A DNA stretch of 64,000 bases from Elusimicrobia bacterium GWA2_51_34 (GTDB taxonomy: Bacteria > Elusimicrobiota > Elusimicrobia > Elusimicrobiales > UBA9959), in contig MGTS01000018.1 in assembly GCA_001799565.1 (NCBI GenBank), positions 23,344 to 87,343 of the forward strand, given 5' to 3'. Below are positions 8,628 through 63,396 of this stretch, one piece after another; within the stretch, counting starts at the first letter, position 1; each line of letters opens with the position of its first letter. The notes beneath the pieces were generated by a model. It saw only the letters and a list, made by a program, of their open reading frames with translations. It was not told the DNA's origin and searched no databases. The translations under genes were made by a program, and so were the position numbers.

Positions 8628-10739
8628 ATGACAAACAATAACACAACCCGCCTTGAAGAAAAGGTGGGGGACGATGTAATTTCATTTGAAACAGGGGAGC
8701 TCGCAAAACAGGCCGGCGGCGCCGTGCTTGTGCGCCTTGGCGATACCGTAGTACTTTCTACCTGCGTACAGGCGAAAAAGCCCAAAGATAATCCGCCCGA
8801 GTTCGTGCCGCTCAGCTGCGACTACAAGGAGAAAACTTACGCCGCGGGCAAAATACCCGGCGGCTTCTTCAAAAGGGAAGGCAAAGCCCGCGAGAAAGAA
8901 GTACTGGGCTCACGCCTTACCGACCGCTCAGTGCGGCCGCTGTTCCCTAAATATTTCAACACCGAAACGCAGGTAGTTTCGGCCGTAGTGTCAAGCGACT
9001 GCGCCAAAGACGCGGATGTGCTTTCCATCAACGGCGCTTCGGCCGCGCTGATGATCTCGAACGTTCCCTTCAACGGGCCGGTGGCTGCGGTGCGCGTGGG
9101 CAAAGTTGACGGTAAATTAGTAATGAACCCCACCTTTGAGCAGCGTGAAAAGATCGACATGGAACTGGTGATATCAGGCACACTTCATGGCATATTAATG
9201 GTGGAAGGCGGGGGAAAAGAAATATCGAGCGAAGAGCTTATTTCCGCCATGGAAGCTGCCAGACCGGAAATTGAGAAGCTCTGCAAACTTCAGGTGGAAC
9301 TTCAGAAAAAATGCGGCAAGGCCAAAACCGCGGTATTGGCCCCGGTGATAAAGCCGGAAATAAAAGCCGCTGTTGAGCAAAAAGGCCGCCCGGCAATAGA
9401 CAAGCTTCTTAATTCGCATCCCACCAAAGAAGTGCTGGAAGCCACTATGAGCGAAGTAAAAGACGCTCTGGTAAAAGAAATGACGGAGAAATACCCCGAA
9501 GAAAAGACCGCCGCCTACCAGGTTAAAACCCTGATGGAAGACGTAATATACGAAGTGTCGCGCAAGCTGGTACTGAGCACCAAAATACGCACTGACGGCC
9601 GCAAACCCGACGAGATCCGCGCCATTTCCATGCAGGCCGGTTTCCTGCCGCGCACTCACGGCTCGGCGGTGTTTACCAGGGGCCAGACGCAGACACTCGC
9701 CACCGTCACTCTTGGTACCTCCGACGACAAGCAGATACTTGATGATTTAGAGGGGAGGTTCCTGGACCGCTTCATGCTGCATTATAACTTCCCGAGCTTT
9801 TCTACCGGCGAGGTAAAGCCCGACAGAGGCCCCGGACGCCGCGAAATAGGCCACGGCCACCTGGCAAAACGCGCTCTTAAGCCCCTGCTGCCGAGCGAAG
9901 ACGTGTTCCCCTACACCATACGCGTGGTTTCAGATATACTGGAATCAAACGGCTCATCCTCCATGGCCACGGTCTGCGGCGGCTCACTGGCGCTTTTTGA
10001 CGCCGGCGTACCCATGAAAGCCGCCTGCTCCGGCATCGCCATGGGCCTTATCACCGACGGCTCAAGCCATGCCGTGCTTTCGGATATCGCCGGCCTTGAG
10101 GACCATTTCGGCGACATGGACTTTAAGGTGACCGGCACAAAAAATGGCGTTACCGCATTCCAGATGGATGTAAAGCTGGCCTCCGGTATACCCATGAATA
10201 TCCTTAAGGAAGCCATAGAGCAGGCCTCCAGGGGCAGACTTCATATACTCGGGCTTATGGAGCAGCATCTGCCGGCTCCCAGAACCGACATGTCGGAATA
10301 CGCGCCCAGGATAGTAAAGCTCCAACTGCCTAAGGACAAGATAGGCGCTTTCATAGGCCCCGGCGGAAAGAATATCCGCGCCATCATAGAAAAAACCGGC
10401 GCTGACATTGAGGTGGAGGATGACGGCTCGGTGTTCATCTCCTGTACCGACAAGAAAGGCCTTGAAGAGGCCAAAACCATGGTGCAGTACTACACCATGG
10501 ATGTGGAAGTCGGACAGGTTTATACCGGCAGGGTGGTTTCCATACTTAACTTCGGCGCTTTTGTGGAGATACTGCCGGGCAAGGAAGGCCTGCTGCATAT
10601 TTCCGAAGTGGACACAAAGCGCATAAACCGCGTGGAAGATGTTTTGAAAGTAGGCGAAGAAGTGGAGGTCAAAGTAGTGGATATGGATAATATGGGTAAG
10701 TTCCGGCTCTCAAGAAGAGTGCTGCTGCAGGGAAAATAA
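8628..10739 (+). CDS. pnp: Polyribonucleotide nucleotidyltransferase (PNPase)
   Basis: 703 aa with two RNase PH domains, KH and S1 (GQVYTGRVVSILNFGAFVEILPGKEGLLHISE). Confidence 0.98.
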   Translation: MTNNNTTRLEEKVGDDVISFETGELAKQAGGAVLVRLGDTVVLSTCVQAKKPKDNPPEFVPLSCDYKEKTYAAGKIPGGFFKREGKAREKEVLGSRLTDRSVRPLFPKYFNTETQVVSAVVSSDCAKDADVLSINGASAALMISNVPFNGPVAAVRVGKVDGKLVMNPTFEQREKIDMELVISGTLHGILMVEGGGKEISSEELISAMEAARPEIEKLCKLQVELQKKCGKAKTAVLAPVIKPEIKAAVEQKGRPAIDKLLNSHPTKEVLEATMSEVKDALVKEMTEKYPEEKTAAYQVKTLMEDVIYEVSRKLVLSTKIRTDGRKPDEIRAISMQAGFLPRTHGSAVFTRGQTQTLATVTLGTSDDKQILDDLEGRFLDRFMLHYNFPSFSTGEVKPDRGPGRREIGHGHLAKRALKPLLPSEDVFPYTIRVVSDILESNGSSSMATVCGGSLALFDAGVPMKAACSGIAMGLITDGSSHAVLSDIAGLEDHFGDMDFKVTGTKNGVTAFQMDVKLASGIPMNILKEAIEQASRGRLHILGLMEQHLPAPRTDMSEYAPRIVKLQLPKDKIGAFIGPGGKNIRAIIEKTGADIEVEDDGSVFISCTDKKGLEEAKTMVQYYTMDVEVGQVYTGRVVSILNFGAFVEILPGKEGLLHISEVDTKRINRVEDVLKVGEEVEVKVVDMDNMGKFRLSRRVLLQGK

Positions 10740-39583: not shown

Positions 39584-39657
39584 GTTAAGGTGACACACAA
39601 CTTAATTCCTTTGTTCTAAGCTTAGAGACTGGACGCTGGCTAGCCAGCCGATCAGTG
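39584..39657. repeat. 74-nt direct repeat R1 (copy of the left part of the 41689-41853 unit)
   Basis: Identical to 41689-41762 except for one base (manual alignment). It starts 6 nt after the rhodanese gene stop and is preceded by the tandem gggttaaggt gggttaaggt. Confidence 0.92.
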
Positions 39658-40020
39658 CGCAGGCTCCGGCACGGTGCCCCGCGCCGTCGTTCTGCTCCCA
39701 AGGTATGGGGAAGCTTATTTTTTATCATAAGCATCACCCCCTTTCCGGCCGCCAGTGGCGGCCGGGTTTCGGCTTCGCCGTACACCGCAGAAAATAATTT
39801 CCCGCGCGCACTGCAAAGAGTTGATGCCGGTGGCCCCGGTTAATAAAACACCACCCCGGCGTCCGCTGCTGCGGCCGCCCGGGTGGTATTTCCTGTTAAT
39901 GAAGCGTCGCCACCGGCGGGGAGCAGAAACTGCAAAGAGAGTATGGAAAGGCCAGGCCGGTCGCGGCTTGCCGCGTGATGGCCGCCGCCCCCGGCCTGGC
40001 CCGGCTAATCTTAATCTCAC
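39658..40020. other. GC-rich, hairpin-dense ORF-free tract (candidate structured RNA or degenerate repeat cluster)
   Basis: Strong local stems: ccggccgcc-agt-ggcggccgg, and ggccaggccgg...ccggcctggcc enclosing cgcgg-cttg-ccgcg. The motif actgcaaagag occurs twice. The only ORFs are R/P/G-rich and look spurious. Confidence 0.4.
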
Positions 40021-40158: not shown

Positions 40159-41559
40159 ATGATAAGTCCAAGTATCAATATTAAAAAGAACAGTGTCCCC
40201 AAAGTTCTTACGGTTCTTGTTCTGACCATCGCGCTTGGGGGTATCTGGCAAGTATTTTTCGCTAATCCTCTGGGGAAGAGGCTTGTTGCAGTCACTTCAA
40301 TTGTCCGAGAAGCAGCGCTTAAAGAGCTGAATTCATCCTCGCCGCCAGTTAAGAAAAGAATAGCTGAGGCCCTGATAAACACTTTAAAACACCCGCCATT
40401 AAGGATATTTACCTTCGATTTTGACGACGACTACGGTAGAAGTCTTCATTATTGGGTAGAAGACGCTTTCGCAAAAGTTGGAAAGCCGGGTGTACCGATT
40501 CTGATAAAAGCTTTGAGAGAAGAAGATAACTACATCCGCTCCAGCGTCGTTATTGGTTTGGCTCAAATAGGCCCTGAAGCGCGAGTAGCGATTCCGGATC
40601 TATTCTGCATTTACAAAAACCCGGGCAAAGGGGAATACACATACGAAGCCCTCCAGGGCGCACTAACAGCTCTTACCAAGATAGCTCCAGGAGACCCTGC
40701 GGTTGATGCCTTTTTACTCGAAGCACTTAAAGATAATGACTTTGGTACTTGGCGCACGGTATCTGGGTACGCGGTAGAATCCAGTACTATGATTATCGGG
40801 GGTATGTTTCAGGTAATGCTCAAGTCAATCATCAGTGGTTCAATCAATCGGGAAAGGTCCTCCGCGTGCTTCGGGGTAAATTCAAAAGCTGCTCTCCCTC
40901 ATCTCATTACGGCTCTTCGGCACAAAAATATTCAGGTGCGGATGTGGGCATGTAATGCACTCGGAAATATGGAATCGGCGGCAATAGGGGCTGTGCCCGA
41001 GCTTGCAAAGCGGATTTGGGACAGCGATCCTAGTGTGCGCATTAGTGCGGTGAACGCTTTGTCCAGGTTAAAGACAAACGCTGCAACTGCTATTCCTGAG
41101 ATTACTCGCGCTTTAGTCCGCAGCGAAGATCGAAGCGTTCGGAGCATGTCAGCGTTTGTATTAGGTGGAATTGGGCCAGCAGCTAAATCCTCAGTTCCCA
41201 TGCTGCTGACAGCTCTCAACGACCGAGATAGCCGTGTGCGATGCTCGGTCGCTTATGCTTTGGTTGAGTTCGGGATAGAACCGGAGCATGTTTTGCCTAC
41301 GCTCATTCAGTGTATTCTTAAAGAAAGCACAGAATATAACATTGCAACATCCGCTATTGCCAAAATCGGACCAAAGGCTGCCCCTGCAATTCCTTATCTA
41401 ATTCGCAATCTTAAGAAAGAGTCTCCGGAGTACAAGCGTCACGGGGCAATCAGTGCACTTGCCGGAATAGGACCGGCCGCCACAGCGGCATTGAGGCAGA
41501 TAGGGACCCATGACGCGATACAAACTGCAAACGCCCTAGAGGATAAGGTGCCCAAGTAG
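40159..41559 (+). CDS. HEAT-repeat protein with N-terminal membrane anchor
   Basis: 466 aa with repeated PBS-lyase/HEAT-like units (D..VR..A..ALG.IG..A..A.P.L...L). Composition is visibly more AT-rich than the flanking genes. Confidence 0.75.
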   Translation: MISPSINIKKNSVPKVLTVLVLTIALGGIWQVFFANPLGKRLVAVTSIVREAALKELNSSSPPVKKRIAEALINTLKHPPLRIFTFDFDDDYGRSLHYWVEDAFAKVGKPGVPILIKALREEDNYIRSSVVIGLAQIGPEARVAIPDLFCIYKNPGKGEYTYEALQGALTALTKIAPGDPAVDAFLLEALKDNDFGTWRTVSGYAVESSTMIIGGMFQVMLKSIISGSINRERSSACFGVNSKAALPHLITALRHKNIQVRMWACNALGNMESAAIGAVPELAKRIWDSDPSVRISAVNALSRLKTNAATAIPEITRALVRSEDRSVRSMSAFVLGGIGPAAKSSVPMLLTALNDRDSRVRCSVAYALVEFGIEPEHVLPTLIQCILKESTEYNIATSAIAKIGPKAAPAIPYLIRNLKKESPEYKRHGAISALAGIGPAATAALRQIGTHDAIQTANALEDKVPK

Positions 41560-41688
41560 CTCAATTGCGCACAGTTGACCGTGCAAAGGATGGGCGGAAT
41601 AACAGCTAATCACAAGGGACCACATGAACCAGCCTTTTCTTCCTAGCGGCTTGCCGTTACAATCTGTGTCGGATAAGGGACGTTGTTG

Positions 41689-41853
41689 TTAAGGTGACAC
41701 ACAACTTAATTCCTTTGTTCTACGCTTAGAGACTGGACGCTGGCTAGCCAGCCGATCAGTGCCCCGGCAAGGAACTGTCGGCTTGTTGCATACTTCTTTG
41801 AATTTTAAGAGGAACTGCTTAGCATGGCGGGAATTAAGTTCTGTGTCACTTAA
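41689..41853. mobile_element. MITE-like unit / candidate sRNA with 20-nt inverted termini
   Basis: gtgacacacaacttaattcc (41694-41713) against ggaattaagttctgtgtcac (30-49 of line 41821, i.e. 41830-41849), with one mismatch. Internal hairpin actg-gac-gctggc-ta-gccagc-cgat-cagt. A terminator follows. Confidence 0.5.
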
Positions 41854-41862
41854 TCTGAAAGC

Positions 41863-41890
41863 AAAAAACCCGCAAAAGCGGGTTTTTTTC
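41863..41890. terminator. Bidirectional intrinsic-terminator-like hairpin
   Basis: aaaaaa-cccgc-aaaa-gcggg-ttttttt, with A/T runs on both sides. Confidence 0.75.
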
Positions 41891-41897
41891 AAAGCTT

Positions 41898-42045
41898 CGG
41901 AGAGGAAGGGATTCGGGCACAGCTCTTCGGTTCGCCGTCGCTCACCTCAGGCCGCGACCCCGGCTCGCGGTTTCACCTGTTGGTTCAACAACGCTCCGCC
42001 TTTCGAATCCCTACGCGAAGCAAGCAGTTGCTTCGCTTCCTCTCC
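41898..42045 (-). ncRNA. tRNA-Ser-framed structured RNA-like element (148 nt). Acceptor and T-stem arms copy the adjacent tRNA-Ser and enclose a conserved core.
   Basis: The 3' 18 nt are identical to the tRNA-Ser 3' end (C56 to G73). The 5' GGAGAGG equals the tRNA-Ser acceptor 5' strand. Hairpin gcgaagc-aactgctt-gcttcgc. The ~90-nt core aligns without gaps to 63166-63313. Confidence 0.6.
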
Positions 42046-42059
42046 TCAGCTTTAAAAGC

Positions 42060-42085
42060 AAAAACCCCGTTTTCACGGGGTTTTT
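42060..42085 (-). terminator. Intrinsic-terminator-like hairpin downstream of tRNA-Ser (bidirectional shape)
   Basis: aaaaa-ccccg-ttttca-cgggg-ttttt. Read on the minus strand it is followed by tttttgctttt. Confidence 0.7.
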
Positions 42086-42094
42086 AAAAAGCTT

Positions 42095-42184
42095 CGGAGA
42101 GGAAGGGATTCGAACCCTTGATACGAGTTTACCTCGTATGCCGGTTTAGCAAACCGGTGCCTTCAACCACTCGGCCACCTCTCC
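42095..42184 (-). tRNA. tRNA-Ser (anticodon GCU), class II with long variable arm
   Basis: Manual cloverleaf: GGAGAGG acceptor, D-arm GCC/GGC, anticodon loop UUGCUAA, variable arm CAUACGAGGUAAACUCGUAUC, T-arm AAGGG-UUCGAAU-CCCUU, discriminator G. CCA is not encoded. Confidence 0.93.
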
Positions 42185-42211
42185 ACTTTAAATCGTTATC
42201 CAATTTGAAGA

Positions 42212-42314
42212 CGAACCCTTGATACGGGTTTAGCAAACCGGTGCCTTTCCGCCACTACGACTTTGGCGGACCCGCCACCGCTGTAATGGCGGGCAACCAC
42301 TCGGCCACCTCTCC
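42212..42314 (-). pseudogene. Truncated tRNA-Ser(GCU) copy with a 47-nt twin-hairpin insertion in the D-loop. It lacks most of the variable arm and the 3' T-stem/acceptor strand.
   Basis: Matches tRNA-Ser from G1 through the D-arm, anticodon arm (same GCU loop) and AAGGGUUCG. The insertion at 42248-42294 folds as tccgcca-N9-tggcgga and cccgcca-N9-tggcggg. Confidence 0.75.
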
Positions 42315-42560
42315 CTTGGTCGCACCCTTCGTGCTACGCACTCCGGGCGATTAACGCCGGGCCTCAATAGGAAACCGGCCCGGTGCTCTACGAGGGGAGC
42401 TATGCTCCCCTTCGTCGTTCGCTCCGCCGCCTTTGGCGGCCCGCTCACTGTGACTCTGGCCTGTCGCGGGCCTCTGGCGCTGTCCGCGACTGAACCCTTT
42501 CTATATGGTACCCGCGCTCACTAACGAAGGTAATCGCGCGGGCTTATCTCTCACAGCCAC
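42315..42560. other. GC-rich tract made of serial 7-bp-stem hairpins (candidate structured RNA / repeat cluster)
   Basis: Read on the minus strand: cccgcgc...gcgcggg, gtcgcgg...ccgcgac, gccgcc-aaa-ggcggc, ggggagc-ata-gctcccc (extended), ccgggcc...ggcccgg. It includes the REP-like copy at 42460-42493. Confidence 0.4.
42460..42493. repeat. REP-like hairpin
   Basis: cctgtcgcgggcctctggcgctgtccgcgactga, with stem gtcgcgg/ccgcgac. Confidence 0.7.
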
Positions 42561-42715
42561 TTTAGGCGGAACTTGCCGGATACTTCTATAAGAGTATATC
42601 AAAAAATAAAAAAGGCTGCCTGAACTTGAAAGGAAATAAGCGATTGAGCCGGAGGCCGCCAAAGTAATAGAATTTATGCGGAACCGGCTGCGGCCGGTAT
42701 TGCGGCGCTCATGTA

Positions 42716-60461: not shown

Positions 60462-61796
60462 TCAACTCTCAATTTTCTTTTTAAGATTTATTTCAAGGCG
60501 GGTAGAACGCGCTCCGTGGCGCTTAAGCTTATTTTTTGCCGCCTCCGGCACCGCGGGGTCGCTAAGCATAGCCACAATTTTAGGCAGCGTAAGGCCAAGA
60601 GCTTTCTGGTAAAGGTCAAACTCATTCAGCACGCCTATAACAGCCTCGCGGTCGCCGAATTTCCAGTTTTCACCTCGGCTGAGTTCCAGGCTGTATTTTT
60701 CGCCGGAAAGTTCTTTTTTACCTTCGCCTGTATGCATACCGCCAAGTTCCCGCGCCACCTCATCAAGCTGGGCGTTAAGCTTATCCATTTCTTCTTTCAG
60801 ATGTCCGTAGCGGTCCACCAGCGCCTCAACTTTTGCGGCGGAGCCGCGCGGAACCTCCCCGCCGTCCGTTTGTCCGCCTAAGGCGGACGGTTGTTTCTTC
60901 TGATGCGCGGGGAGCACAGCCGAAGAGGCAGGCGGCCTGCTTGAATCCGCGTGCACGGGGCACAAATTTTTAAAGTCGCAGAAATGGCACTGAAATTCGC
61001 CGGGATTAGGCTCAAACTTCATGCCCCGTATATTTTCAGCCGCGCCAAGGACCCGGTCCCAGAAAACGCCTATTTCTTTATCGCCGGCCCGTTCAAAGTG
61101 GTACTGTTTAAGCGTAGGCACATGGTAATAAAGCATCTGCTTTATTTTTACCGAACTTACTTTTTGCCCGTAACGCTCGGCTATTTTTTCTTTAAGCCGC
61201 GGGTCCAGTTCGCTTATTTTCTGATACATGTAAAGCTGATCCGGCTGGCGTTTTACATCTTTGCCGGTCTTGTAATCTATCAGCTCAACTTCGCCTCCGC
61301 CCGCATACTCAATACGGTCGGCTATTATACGCACCTTAAGGCCGTCCACTTCCACATCGGTGGAATACTCAAGCAAAAAAGGAGGCTTCAGGGAGTCCTT
61401 ATTAGCGGCGTAATAGGCTTTAAGCATTTCAACGCCTTTGCGAAAATCTGTTTCCTCTTTGGCGGGGTCTTTATAACCTTTTTCAAGCCAGGATTTAAGG
61501 CCCCATTGTTTTTTGAAAGATTCAAGCACTTCTTCAATTGAAGGGAAAGGCGGATTGCTGACGGCGTGCAGGAACTCCAGGGCCTTATGTATGCTGTTGC
61601 CGAAAGCAAAATACGACTTTGGCTCTTCTTTTATCTTGTCAAGATATTTGAATTTATATTTGAGCGGGCACTCCGTATACATGGAAAGCTTTGAGTAGGA
61701 GAAGGCAAGGGGACTGGCCCCGCCCTTTTGCCCGATGCTTTTAAAAGCAGTTGGAAAAAGAGCGGGGGTTTTTTCCTCATTTTGTTTTTTCTTCAT
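60462..61796 (-). CDS. PD-(D/E)XK nuclease family protein (Cas4/AddB-like Cys pattern) with C-terminal coiled-coil extension
   Basis: YSKLSMYTECPLKYKFKYL, ADRIE...IDYKTGK, and C-x2-C-x5-C (CHFCDFKNLC). The ~150-aa C-terminal region is of unknown function. Confidence 0.7.
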   Translation of the reverse strand: MKKKQNEEKTPALFPTAFKSIGQKGGASPLAFSYSKLSMYTECPLKYKFKYLDKIKEEPKSYFAFGNSIHKALEFLHAVSNPPFPSIEEVLESFKKQWGLKSWLEKGYKDPAKEETDFRKGVEMLKAYYAANKDSLKPPFLLEYSTDVEVDGLKVRIIADRIEYAGGGEVELIDYKTGKDVKRQPDQLYMYQKISELDPRLKEKIAERYGQKVSSVKIKQMLYYHVPTLKQYHFERAGDKEIGVFWDRVLGAAENIRGMKFEPNPGEFQCHFCDFKNLCPVHADSSRPPASSAVLPAHQKKQPSALGGQTDGGEVPRGSAAKVEALVDRYGHLKEEMDKLNAQLDEVARELGGMHTGEGKKELSGEKYSLELSRGENWKFGDREAVIGVLNEFDLYQKALGLTLPKIVAMLSDPAVPEAAKNKLKRHGARSTRLEINLKKKIES

Positions 61797-62583
61797 ACGA
61801 TATCAGCTCCATTACCCTGTGCTCAAAACCCGGCCCGCCCACCGAGGTAAGCACCCTGCCTTTCCAGGGCGCGTAATATTCATAAATCCAGGATGGCATA
61901 CCAGCCATGCGGCGGCTTACTTTAATACAATTACCAAACTCGCCGGCGCGCGTTTTAATTTTCAGGCCCTCGGCCTCAACCTTGAAAGATACGCGCCCGC
62001 CCCGATCATGTGAAGTCCAGCTAAGGCCCAAACGCGGCGGGTTCCTGAGGATAATTGTATCAAAACCGCCCTGCTTTTCTATCAAGTCTCCGCCGGAAAG
62101 ATAATAGGCGCGTTTTTGCCGTATTACCAGCTGACGGCCGGCGTAAATACAATTTTCCGCGGTGGTTTTATCAGGGGCTACCGCGGTAATTGAAAATTCA
62201 TATCTGGCGTTTTTGCCGCCGGTCTGTGAGTCGCCGTACAACCAGCTGCCTGCCGCGTTAACAGGAAAATAATCGGGGCATAAGAACAGCCCGCGAAGCG
62301 CCTCGCTCCTGAGCGGCGTGGCGGGATAATTTCTAAGGAGTCTTTCAAAAAGCGGACCTGATTTTGAACAGAGGCTGAATTCTTTTGAATAAATACCGGC
62401 AGCCTTAAAAAGCGCCTGCTGGGCCCTGGGATCCGAGGGGCTTTTTTCCGCAAAAAGAGCATAGTGCTCCGCAGCCCCCAGCATCAGCCCCTGGGAGCGG
62501 AGTTTTTCCGCTTCTTCGTAATGGTAATTTCCGCAAGCCGTAAGGAACGCCGCGGCAAACGAAAGTAAAAATATTTTTCTCAT
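61777..62583 (-). CDS. Hypothetical lipoprotein
   Basis: 268 aa with a lipobox FLTAC. It overlaps the downstream nuclease gene by 20 nt. Confidence 0.5.
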   Translation of the reverse strand: MRKIFLLSFAAAFLTACGNYHYEEAEKLRSQGLMLGAAEHYALFAEKSPSDPRAQQALFKAAGIYSKEFSLCSKSGPLFERLLRNYPATPLRSEALRGLFLCPDYFPVNAAGSWLYGDSQTGGKNARYEFSITAVAPDKTTAENCIYAGRQLVIRQKRAYYLSGGDLIEKQGGFDTIILRNPPRLGLSWTSHDRGGRVSFKVEAEGLKIKTRAGEFGNCIKVSRRMAGMPSWIYEYYAPWKGRVLTSVGGPGFEHRVMELISYEEKTK

Positions 62584-62835: not shown

Positions 62836-63154
62836 TACCCCCATCAGGAATCGGCCACAGGTTCTCGGGCCGCCGTCGCGGCCCTCGCCCTTCGGCCACA
62901 GCTCGCGGTTTCGCCTGCTGGCCTGATTGCCTGAATTGTGTCCATAGCAGTCCTCTGGAAGCCCAGTCCACCCAACACCGCTCCGCTTTTCGATTCCTGA
63001 CGTGAAGACCGGCTTTAGAGCGAAACATAATTATGTTTCGCGTCCGGTCCGCAAGGGCGGAGGCGTCCACATCAGGCGAACGCCGAGCCGGGGTCGCGGA
63101 AAACCGCTATGCGGTTTATCCGTGACAGCCAAGCAGTTGGCTCGCTATGGGGCC
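62836..63154 (-). ncRNA. tRNA-Arg-framed structured RNA-like element, expanded and partly degenerate copy (319 nt)
   Basis: Has the same arm layout as 63166-63313. The core has a ~50-nt expansion, and ~120 extra nt lie between the T-stem 5' strand and the conserved hairpin. The acceptor 3' strand carries one substitution. Confidence 0.55.
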
Positions 63155-63165
63155 ATGAAAATTCA

Positions 63166-63313
63166 TGCCCCCATCAGGAATCGGTCACGGGTTCCCGGTT
63201 CGCCGACGCTCACCAGGCCCCGCGACCCCGCCTCGCGGTTTCGTCTGCTGACTCAACATCGCTCCGGCTTTCGATTCCTGACGCGAGACAAGCAGTTGTC
63301 TCGCTATGGGGCC
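63166..63313 (-). ncRNA. tRNA-Arg-framed structured RNA-like element (148 nt)
   Basis: The 3' 18 nt are identical to the tRNA-Arg 3' end (C56 to A73). The 5' GGCCCCA resembles the tRNA-Arg acceptor 5' strand. Hairpin gcgagac-aactgctt-gtctcgc. The core aligns without gaps to 41898-42045, and an 11-nt spacer atgaaaattca separates it from the tRNA. Confidence 0.6.
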
Positions 63314-63324
63314 ATGAAAATTCA

Positions 63325-63396
63325 TGCCCCCATCAGGAATCGAACCTGAATTACCTGCTTAGAAGGCAGGTGCTCTATCCATTGAGCTATGGGGGC
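63325..63396 (-). tRNA. tRNA-Arg (anticodon UCU)
   Basis: Manual cloverleaf: GCCCCCA acceptor, D-arm GCUC/GAGC, anticodon arm CCUGC-CUUCUAA-GCAGG, T-arm UCAGG-UUCGAUU-CCUGA, discriminator A. CCA is not encoded. Confidence 0.93.

Follow-up and report, generated by a model that had tools for sequence, protein, structure and literature searches.

Organization of the tRNA-Ser(GCU) locus

The window analyzed here is a 64,000-nucleotide (nt) stretch of the Elusimicrobia bacterium GWA2_51_34 genome (contig MGTS01000018.1, positions 23,344 to 87,343 of the forward strand), in which a 148-nt unit lies behind a tRNA-Ser(GCU) gene on the minus strand. The unit is one copy of a widespread, uncatalogued family of structured RNA elements that are located immediately 3' of tRNA genes and in the orientation of the tRNA. 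Every copy consists of a long stem that ends in a conserved core, a three-way junction of about 88 nt; the 3' strand of the stem repeats the host tRNA from C56 to the discriminator, and its 5' strand is antisense to tRNA nt 54 to 72. The genes of the window encode PNPase, FtsK, GroEL, glutamine synthetase, Sua5, MgtE, and other housekeeping proteins, and judging from its Sua5 homologues, the window appears to be ordinary Elusimicrobiales chromosome.

The host tRNA-Ser(GCU) gene (42095 to 42185, minus strand) was found by ARAGORN and by the Rfam tRNA model (63.1 bits), with calls at 42094/5 to 42184/5. Its discriminator G is at 42095, and its nt 56 to 73 are at 42112 to 42095. The spacer that follows (42046 to 42094) is composed of AAGCUUUUU, a CCCCG/CGGGG hairpin, a U-run, and AAAGCUGA, and the unit begins at 42045 and ends at 41898, in agreement with the distance of 49 nt given in the original prediction. 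All parts of the unit are on the minus strand. The unit opens with the acceptor-type strand GGAGAGG (42039 to 42045), which, as had been noticed, equals the 5' acceptor strand of the tRNA and is complementary to nt 66 to 72 of both the repeat and the tRNA. After an AA, hairpin H (GCGAAGC AACUGCUU GCUUCGC, 42015 to 42036) is followed by GU and by the 5' strand of an extended T stem, AGGGAUUCG (42004 to 42012), which is the reverse complement of tRNA nt 56 to 64 and is therefore the antisense, not a copy, of the tRNA T stem. The GC-rich core (41916 to 42003) opens with AAAG and is enclosed by the nine-pair T stem. The unit closes with repeat R, CGAAUCCCUUCCUCUCCG (41898 to 41915), which supplies the 3' side of both the T stem and the acceptor stem and is identical to nt 56 to 73 of tRNA-Ser, confirming that the last 18 nt of the unit and of the tRNA are the same. 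The earlier description of a single hairpin in place of the D, anticodon, and variable arms also holds, with RNAalifold reading 9 base pairs (bp) and a CUGC loop rather than 7 to 8 bp, and so does that of a 9-bp T stem around a core of about 90 nt, the exact length being 88 nt.

The distal flank (41855 to 41897, minus strand) contains AAGCUUUG, an A-run, a CCCG/CGGG hairpin, and a U-run and is a diverged copy of the spacer. The repeat at the Ser locus is exact over 25 nt, AAGCTTT included (none was expected by chance in the repeat search), and beyond the exact part the spacer and the distal flank are 83% identical over 58 nt, through the hairpin and T-run. A terminator-like hairpin (CCCG-CUUUUG-CGGG followed by UUUUUU) can be seen by eye after the unit. 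However, a consensus terminator scan of positions 41600 to 42700 called no terminator, the spacer and distal-flank hairpins included, likely because the flanking A/T runs lengthen the stem. Thus, the claim that the unit has a flank mimicking that of the tRNA and a terminator of its own stands for the flank and for the visible hairpin and is not backed by the scan.

Element copies at the tRNA-Arg(UCU) locus

The same architecture with tRNA-Arg arms, which the original prediction had reported at 63166 to 63313, is present behind the tRNA-Arg(UCU) gene (63325 to 63396, minus strand, found by ARAGORN and Rfam). This element, Arg1 (minus strand, fold z = -7.1, 168 bits with the covariance model described below), consists of a 5' strand (63312 to 63306), a hairpin (63304 to 63283), a T-stem strand (63280 to 63272), an 88-nt core (63271 to 63184), and a repeat of tRNA-Arg nt 56 to 73 (63183 to 63166). 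It is in tandem with an older, distal element, Arg2 (62836 to 63153, minus strand), which was recognized by its direct repeats and by the covariance model (76.9 bits). Arg2 is degraded, with its 5' strand and hairpin at 63153 to 63125 and its T-stem strand, a core expanded to 138 nt, and its repeat at about 63000 to 62836. A small variant of the family (63010 to 63142, plus strand, 40.2 bits, z = -6.1) splits Arg2 between the hairpin and the T-stem strand in the reverse orientation, with CGTGA at both junctions, and is the only clear insertion event. A homologue of this nested variant occupies a comparable position in L058 (loci outside the window are designated by L numbers), and a reverse-oriented small variant behind a canonical copy occurs in two lineages, at different tRNAs.

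Arg2 (62854 to 62991, minus strand) and a Ser(GGA)-linked copy of L065 (8600 to 8720, minus strand) share an inserted core module, GUGGACUGGGC...AGAGGAC(U/A)GCUA(U/C)GGACAC. Three places share the motif ACUGCU: the hairpin loop, this module, and an extra domain of copies from the candidate phyla radiation (CPR) (GUACUGCUCC). Immediately downstream of the Arg array and on the same strand is a two-gene unit (60462 to 62583, minus strand) encoding a 268-amino-acid protein without a Pfam family (weak TPR/lipoprotein-like matches) and a 444-amino-acid PD-(D/E)XK nuclease (PF12705); no link between this unit and the element was established.

Distribution of the family and the arm rule

A scan of one genome per species with the core pattern TCGAAANNCGGAGCGNTGTTG gave 35 matches, most of them due to chance, and the whole architecture was present in four of these, two from Elusimicrobiaceae and one each from Saccharibacteria and Paceibacterota. 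Scanning metagenomes with core patterns yielded about 15 further true loci, and two core patterns together gave about 25 copies outside the window, in Elusimicrobia, Saccharibacteria, Paceibacterota, and metagenomes. An alignment (A1) and a covariance model (R1) were built from 14 canonical copies, and R1 detected 28 copies in the DNA examined. The core therefore recurs beyond the window in both kinds of search, and the expectation of cognate-armed copies at other tRNA loci was realized, as family members lie next to many tRNA genes. Apart from two small variants and the first L034 copy, for which the DNA examined contains no tRNA, all copies inspected immediately followed, in the same orientation, a tRNA gene or the remnant of one; such remnants are found in L080 and at the second copy in L054. 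The host tRNAs include Ser(GCU, GGA), Arg(UCU, UCG, CCG), Val(UAC, CAC), Met, Tyr, Leu(CAG), Thr(GGU), and Glu(UUC), with at least 13 anticodons among the copies checked.

The relationship between the arms and the host tRNA was measured in 18 copies. In all 18, the repeat starts exactly at C56, the junction reading GTT/C in the tRNA and mostly GAC/C in the element; the repeat is 18 to 61 nt long and often runs into the non-tRNA flank. The T-stem 5' strand matches tRNA nt 56 to 64 at 9 of 9 pairs, again in 18 of 18 copies. Taken together, the 5' parts read as the reverse complement of tRNA nt 56 to 72, usually broken at the acceptor/T boundary by a hairpin of 9 to 11 bp; the hairpin is missing from one Paceibacterota unit, which has the inverted repeat of 16 nt. 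An invariant AA after the T-stem strand would extend pairing to U54-U55 of the tRNA and not to the element's own context, so that the 5' strand is compatible in sequence with pairing to the tRNA 3' end as far as U54-U55. Two simpler origins of these parts were rejected. A 4-nt target duplication in the T loop (CGAA) does not hold, since at TTCGATT and TTCAAAT loops alike the 5' strand complements the tRNA instead of copying it directly. Nor is the hairpin loop an anticodon relic, since AACUGCUU is unchanged beside Ser, Arg, Val, Met, and Tyr tRNAs and other lineages have another tetraloop.

This arm rule bears on the view that the element is a host regulatory or quality-control RNA for its cognate tRNA, in which the element's own repeat would keep the antisense 5' strand closed until cleavage or a signal sensed by the core opened it and allowed the 5' strand to bind the 3' half of the tRNA or pre-tRNA. 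The T-stem antisense is perfect in every measured copy, the invariant AA complements the tRNA rather than the element's own GAC/C context, and in L018, L053, L054, and L066 the element's own repeat has mutated once or twice while the 5' strand still fits the tRNA. The association with the tRNA is also long and vertical, and the core is strongly conserved. However, close relatives freely decay, delete, or duplicate their copies, the acceptor part of the antisense is often degenerate, and a folded and modified tRNA is a poor antisense target. Such a host function seems rather unlikely to us; it and the other alternatives considered below stay alive because the resident-element reading preferred below explains neither the origin of cognate antisense arms at a new tRNA nor the persistence of so easily deleted an element.

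Conserved fold and strand assignment

Pairing was counted in a MAFFT alignment, with 500 shuffles and slid partners as controls. Paired cells made up 94.1% of the total, versus 76.8% in the shuffles and 34 to 41% in the slid controls, and 34 of 51 pairs had changes on both sides. The covariation score was 0.502, versus 0.176 in the shuffles (reached by 0 of 500) and about 0.1 for slid partners, and no shuffle matched the observed value in any of five measures. RNAalifold resolved an acceptor helix (helix 1), hairpin H (helix 2), the T stem (helix 3), a GNC/GN'C contact, hairpin A, and a long hairpin B. The T stem is 99.1% paired across the family, whereas the acceptor helix is the least maintained, at 80.7%. 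The stem of hairpin H has double changes in nine of nine pairs; its loop sequence is conserved only within Elusimicrobia, and L053, L067, L075, and L018 have other tetraloops.

Of the 14 canonical copies, 13 have a core of 88 nt, the exception being L067 with 86 nt. When the whole unit is aligned (A1), 42 columns are invariant, and the majority of them fall in the core. The middle pair of the three-pair GNC/GN'C contact covaries (GC in 10 copies, CG in 3, and AU in 1), and covariation is also seen in helices 4, 7, and 8. Hairpin A (GNC-GGA-GC..GUUGA-GCC-AGCA-GGC-GAAAC..GAG-N'C) holds a tandem G-A motif. Hairpin B runs from GGUCGCG through a covarying stem and the loop GAGCGACGGCGAG to GUGAC(C) and contains an invariant G-U, a 2-nt AA bulge, and a freely covarying upper stem. 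Two alternative hairpins, CGCGA/UCGCG and GGUCGCG/GUGACC, are both invariant, with about equal exception counts, and may constitute a conformational switch. A kissing interaction between hairpin H (CUGCU) and hairpin A (AGCAG) was rejected; the two are complementary in many Elusimicrobia copies and do not covary where the loops differ. In more distant copies, the first half of the core is retained while the remainder is replaced or expanded, and CPR copies have an added domain containing GGUGUACUGCUCCUGUAGGGAGG. Peripheral domains have thus been gained and lost among copies around a conserved center, which is the usual pattern in large functional RNAs.

The fold was assigned to the tRNA-sense strand because of its G-U pairs, which would be C-A on the opposite strand, and because the antisense fold is 13 kcal/mol weaker. 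The G-U pair at columns 95:131 is invariant, and G-U is frequent at 97:129; for the Ser unit, the sense fold is -79.4 kcal/mol (z = -6.8) and the antisense fold is -66.7 kcal/mol (z = -4.8). A structured molecule on the tRNA-sense strand is therefore favored, which would be RNA or, less likely, single-stranded DNA. Compensatory changes exceed both the shuffled and the slid controls on one strand, as is generally expected of structured RNAs, and the structured, RNA-like element of the original prediction can be described as strand specific and strongly covarying.

These results weigh against the interpretation that the element is inert debris of integrase-mediated islands at tRNA genes, consisting of att repeats and a remnant whose RNA fold is without function. 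Islands that integrate into tRNA genes classically show tandem accretion and a directly repeated tRNA 3' end, and in L054 an islet with a Fic gene lies between two tRNA-Met/element units. However, debris would not be expected to hold an 88-nt core that is mostly invariant and shows compensatory changes across phyla, and it would not have kept a strand-specific fold or a cognate antisense strand in 18 of 18 copies. Since the covariation disfavors it and the alignment is not made up of recent copies of one sequence, debris is an extremely improbable explanation.

The helix statistics also bear on the proposal, made in the original prediction, that tRNA enzymes process the unit through an acceptor/T minihelix. 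In its strict form, the acceptor/T stack would serve only as a scaffold by which RNase P, RNase Z, or CCA-adding enzyme excises and stabilizes the core RNA. A seven-pair acceptor stem, a discriminator, and a coaxial T stem are present in the window Ser unit (winSer), L053, L054, and L018, and the element is always close behind a tRNA in the same orientation. A resemblance to transfer-messenger RNA (tmRNA), YrlA (bacterial Y RNA), viral tRNA-like structures, and mascRNA also exists in that an acceptor-type stem on a T-type stem is joined to a non-tRNA module. In contrast to these RNAs, which have a genuine T loop and a fixed identity, the element has a core in place of the T loop, its arms are those of the upstream tRNA, and it has no Rfam or ARAGORN match. 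RNase P and CCA-adding enzyme use the elbow formed by the T and D loops; the element has neither loop and hence no elbow. The acceptor helix is the helix with the weakest pairing, and in several copies its 5' strand has indels (Arg1, L022, and L044) or is absent (L075). The scaffold view also leaves the neighbor-matching arms and the duplicated 3' flank unexplained. The processing proposal is thus weakened, and such a scaffold appears improbable.

Predicted folds of tRNA-element cotranscripts

The predicted lowest-energy fold of a tRNA-element cotranscript involves a strand swap at both window loci, in which the distal repeat becomes the partner of the tRNA body and the 5' strand of the element pairs with the tRNA's own 3' half. 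These models, which ignore cotranscriptional folding and in which the swap is predicted by the repeats alone, show three strands in competition. The pairing of the tRNA 3' half with the element's 5' strand at both loci would suit the host RNA discussed above, with the same limits: the swap is expected from the repeats, and cotranscriptional folding is left aside.

The swapped fold would also suit an intron-like element in which pairing joins the tRNA body to the distal repeat and the segment between U55 and the distal C56 is removed or tolerated. The boundary is fixed at nt 55/56, and an invariant GUGAC closes the core. Like group I and II introns and homing ribozymes, the element occupies a conserved site of an essential RNA gene, has internal segments that pair with the flanking "exon," and combines a conserved core, variable peripheral domains, and an old, patchy distribution. 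However, the proximal repeat already completes the tRNA, so that splicing is needless; the 88-nt core is far below the size of known self-splicing introns and matches no intron family; there is no evidence of splicing; and a terminator-like hairpin often separates the element from its tRNA. Intron-like behavior is accordingly rated as quite improbable.

Comparison with known RNAs and mobile elements

No match to the element at the window locus was obtained with Rfam 15 at the gathering score. At E ≤ 10, only weak, chance-level matches to terminator-like parts were found at the locus, and at E ≤ 0.1 nothing was found in five related loci. ARAGORN and the Rfam tRNA model recognized only the two genuine tRNAs in the window and did not accept the elements as tRNAs. 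No tmRNA was found by ARAGORN or Rfam, and the arms track the neighboring tRNA rather than tRNA-Ala. Self-cleaving ribozymes, riboswitches, YrlA, HEARO, and introns in Rfam 15 gave no gathering-score match, and a comparison of the core, by hand, with the motifs of hammerhead, twister, pistol, hatchet, and hepatitis delta virus-like ribozymes, ZTP, RNase P, signal recognition particle RNA, and tmRNA gave no consistent match. The core recalls ZTP (GUGAC, GGCGAAC, and GAGCGAC) and, in hairpin B, group II domain V (CGC triad, G-U wobble, and 2-nt bulge), resemblances that we take to be leads only. The Rfam 15 and ARAGORN results agree with the earlier statement that the unit belongs to no named RNA family, and no description of such an element was found in the open-access literature.

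Searches for mobility genes or protein partners were also negative. Pfam and NCBIfam scans of 46 of the 53 candidate open reading frames of the window and of ten neighboring genes in five other loci revealed housekeeping-type genes and the single Fic-gene islet in L054. A linked protein partner was thus rejected for the window and for the ten flanking genes of the five other loci, and a phage, plasmid, or viral origin was rejected since those collections contained no matches. Miniature elements of the IS200/IS605 type (PATE) and TnpB omega RNA were considered as well; no TnpA or TnpB gene lies within the window, and the element duplicates its target, unlike IS200/IS605 miniature elements, which do not.

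The absence of a partner gene is a difficulty for the idea that the element is the guide RNA of an unlinked effector, directed, for example, against the attP sites of tRNA-integrating phages and islands, or is a recombination guide resembling bridge or omega RNAs. There is one RNA per tRNA, in which some segments match tRNA nt 56 to 73 exactly and others are complementary to them; this block is reportedly the one carried in attP by elements that integrate at the T loop, and the core is conserved in the manner of a protein-binding scaffold. As in the TnpB/IscB omega RNA and the IS110 bridge RNA, a scaffold is joined to a stretch identical or complementary to adjacent DNA. However, no candidate effector gene is linked to the element at any locus examined, no TnpB, IscB, or IS110 gene was found in the window or the neighboring loci, and the HEARO and IS605-type motifs of Rfam gave no match. 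Moreover, the guide-like parts pair with each other inside the RNA, and the chromosomal tRNA gene itself would be targeted. A guide for an unlinked effector is therefore judged very unlikely.

Compared with the islands, phages, and cis-mobilizable elements (CIMEs) that integrate at tRNA T loops, the element has in common a direct repeat from the T loop to the tRNA 3' end that keeps the tRNA intact (18 to 61 nt from C56 in all 18 copies), tandem accretion with the older copies distal, and scars in relatives. Unlike them, it is only 150 to 200 nt long and has no integrase adjacent in the loci scanned, its repeat includes a variable non-tRNA flank, and between its repeats are an antisense tRNA segment and a conserved, covarying, strand-specific core. 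The folded attP of CTX-type phages (integrative mobile elements exploiting Xer [IMEX]) is similar in that inverted target copies about 90 nt apart fold into a stem resembling the target duplex. In contrast, the target of the element is the tRNA 3' end rather than dif, there is no phage context, and the intervening 88 nt are its most conserved part and show RNA-type G-U covariation. The element thus mixes features of tRNA-integrating islands, tRNA-like RNAs, and guide-bearing ribozymes or ribonucleoproteins and fails the defining tests of each, and we rate it as categorically new as judged against Rfam 15 and the open-access literature.

History of the element in related genomes

In the syntenic relative represented by L083 and L084, whose Sua5 is 86% identical, tRNA-Ser(GCU) is followed in L083 by the same terminator-like hairpin and then by ggaggagaggaag, gcgg, and tctataa in succession. 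This is a scar: the 5' strand remains, together with the bases that open the core, and the rest has been deleted. L079 (82%) has a degenerate copy. In L080 (81%), tRNA-Ser(GCU) has no element, and a decayed copy lies elsewhere, with its 3' arm gone and its tRNA missing nt 1 to 53. The close relatives L055 and L058 differ by deletions and rearrangements just behind a common Val element.

Canonical cores are 75 to 93% identical. Recent transposition was rejected, as no near-identical copies were found at different tRNAs, and Ser-linked copies have stem features in common across genomes. For these two reasons, the association with a given tRNA seems to be old and inherited mainly by vertical descent. 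Copies have frequently been lost and have duplicated locally, as direct repeats 150 to 200 nt apart would be expected to cause.

Two tRNA-Met/element units about 2 kb apart are present in L054 (10544 to 12850, minus strand), with a Fic/DOC gene (DUF4172) between them. The second tRNA-Met is cut at the anticodon loop, and the arrangement resembles that of a conventional islet which integrated at the anticodon-loop sublocation and brought the 3' half of a tRNA together with its element.

Other features near tRNA-Ser genes

Directly upstream of the functional tRNA-Ser(GCU) gene is a decayed second copy of tRNA-Ser (42212 to 42314, minus strand). Its 5' end is identical over 21 nt, its D loop is interrupted by 44 nt of GC-rich sequence, and it has no variable arm. 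It stops in the T loop after GGGUUCG and is missing from the syntenic relative L083. A GC-rich leader of 100 to 170 nt with internal hairpins is conserved ahead of tRNA-Ser genes in several Elusimicrobia, located at about 42315 to 42400 (minus strand) in the window, at 8940 to 9100 and 3850 to 4010 in L080, at 5670 to 5960 in L083, and at 8870 to 9080 in L065. It ends with GGGUGCGAC(C/A)AAGG, abutting the tRNA, and is partly repeated in L083 and L065; the leader in the window had no Rfam match.

Just past the Ser element, a 158-nt unit with 20-nt inverted ends (41692 to 41849) resembles a miniature inverted-repeat transposable element and carries the hairpin-loop octamer AACTGCTT on the plus strand. 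This complete unit represents the second copy of a direct repeat of 72 nt, GGTGACACACAACTTAATTCC...GATCAGTGC, whose other copy is at 39588 to 39660, and the two bracket a 2.1-kb segment with a HEAT-repeat gene (40159 to 41559). L083 has no HEAT gene at the corresponding place. A long intergenic stretch upstream of the HEAT-repeat gene (39660 to 40020, plus strand) is GC rich and hairpin rich and contains no sizeable open reading frame.

Proposed nature of the element

Our preferred reading, held tentatively, is that of an ancient element resident at the T loop and 3' end of tRNA genes, whose active form would be a structured RNA. The element may be selfish or domesticated. The tRNA gene would stay intact through the duplicated nt 56 to 73 and the variable 3' flank, and the element would hence be harmless to it. 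We infer that the active form is a tRNA-sense RNA, rather than single-stranded DNA, produced by read-through from the tRNA promoter; TAnAAT boxes were seen by eye 10 to 25 nt upstream of the tRNAs at several loci. The core could be a catalytic or protein-binding module for the maintenance or propagation of the element, and unequal recombination between the direct repeats would give rise to tandem copies and losses.

The occurrence of tandem, nested, scarred, decayed, and degenerate copies and the shifting peripheral domains favor a genetic element, and so does the spread over distant phyla. The integration at the tRNA T loop proposed in the original prediction is consistent with the start of the repeat at C56 in 18 of 18 copies, the tandem copies, and the scars and is at odds with the lack of a nearby recombinase, the lack of recent copies, and the old vertical association. 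Several other results weigh against a resident element as well. No integrase, reverse transcriptase, transposase, or TnpB gene is encoded in the 64-kb window, no mobility genes are among the ten genes flanking the copies in L018, L054, L067, L075, and L076, and nothing similar was found in viral contigs, phage records, or plasmid records. The lack of near-identical copies at different tRNAs and the common stem features of Ser-linked copies speak for old vertical descent rather than recent movement. Terminator-like hairpins between the tRNA and the element at several loci make expression uncertain. A simple insertion leaves the cognate antisense 5' strand at each tRNA unexplained, and the long-kept core of an easily deleted element would suggest a benefit to the host or active reinsertion.

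A more specific reading, which we regard as possible although doubtful, is that the family is either a new class of tRNA-homing RNA elements or a guide system with one RNA per tRNA. The core would then be a ribozyme or an effector scaffold acting at the bond between nt 55 and 56 or on the 3' half of the cognate tRNA or tRNA gene, and the arms at a new tRNA would be copied from the target by an undescribed templated process.

Implications

If the reading of a structured RNA family is true, many tRNA genes of Elusimicrobia and the CPR bear a companion RNA with a stem derived from the tRNA's own 3' end and a core conserved as tightly as is usual for ribozymes or riboswitch aptamers, which would constitute a new and widespread class of structured RNA. 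Repeats of tRNA 3' ends are routinely taken as the att sites of islands in genome annotation, and at the loci of this element they are not. Depending on the mechanism, the family may represent a new type of mobile element that has no linked protein and targets the site most conserved among tRNA genes, an additional level at which individual tRNAs are controlled, or a programmable RNA that would draw its specificity from 17 to 19 nt of simple base pairing.

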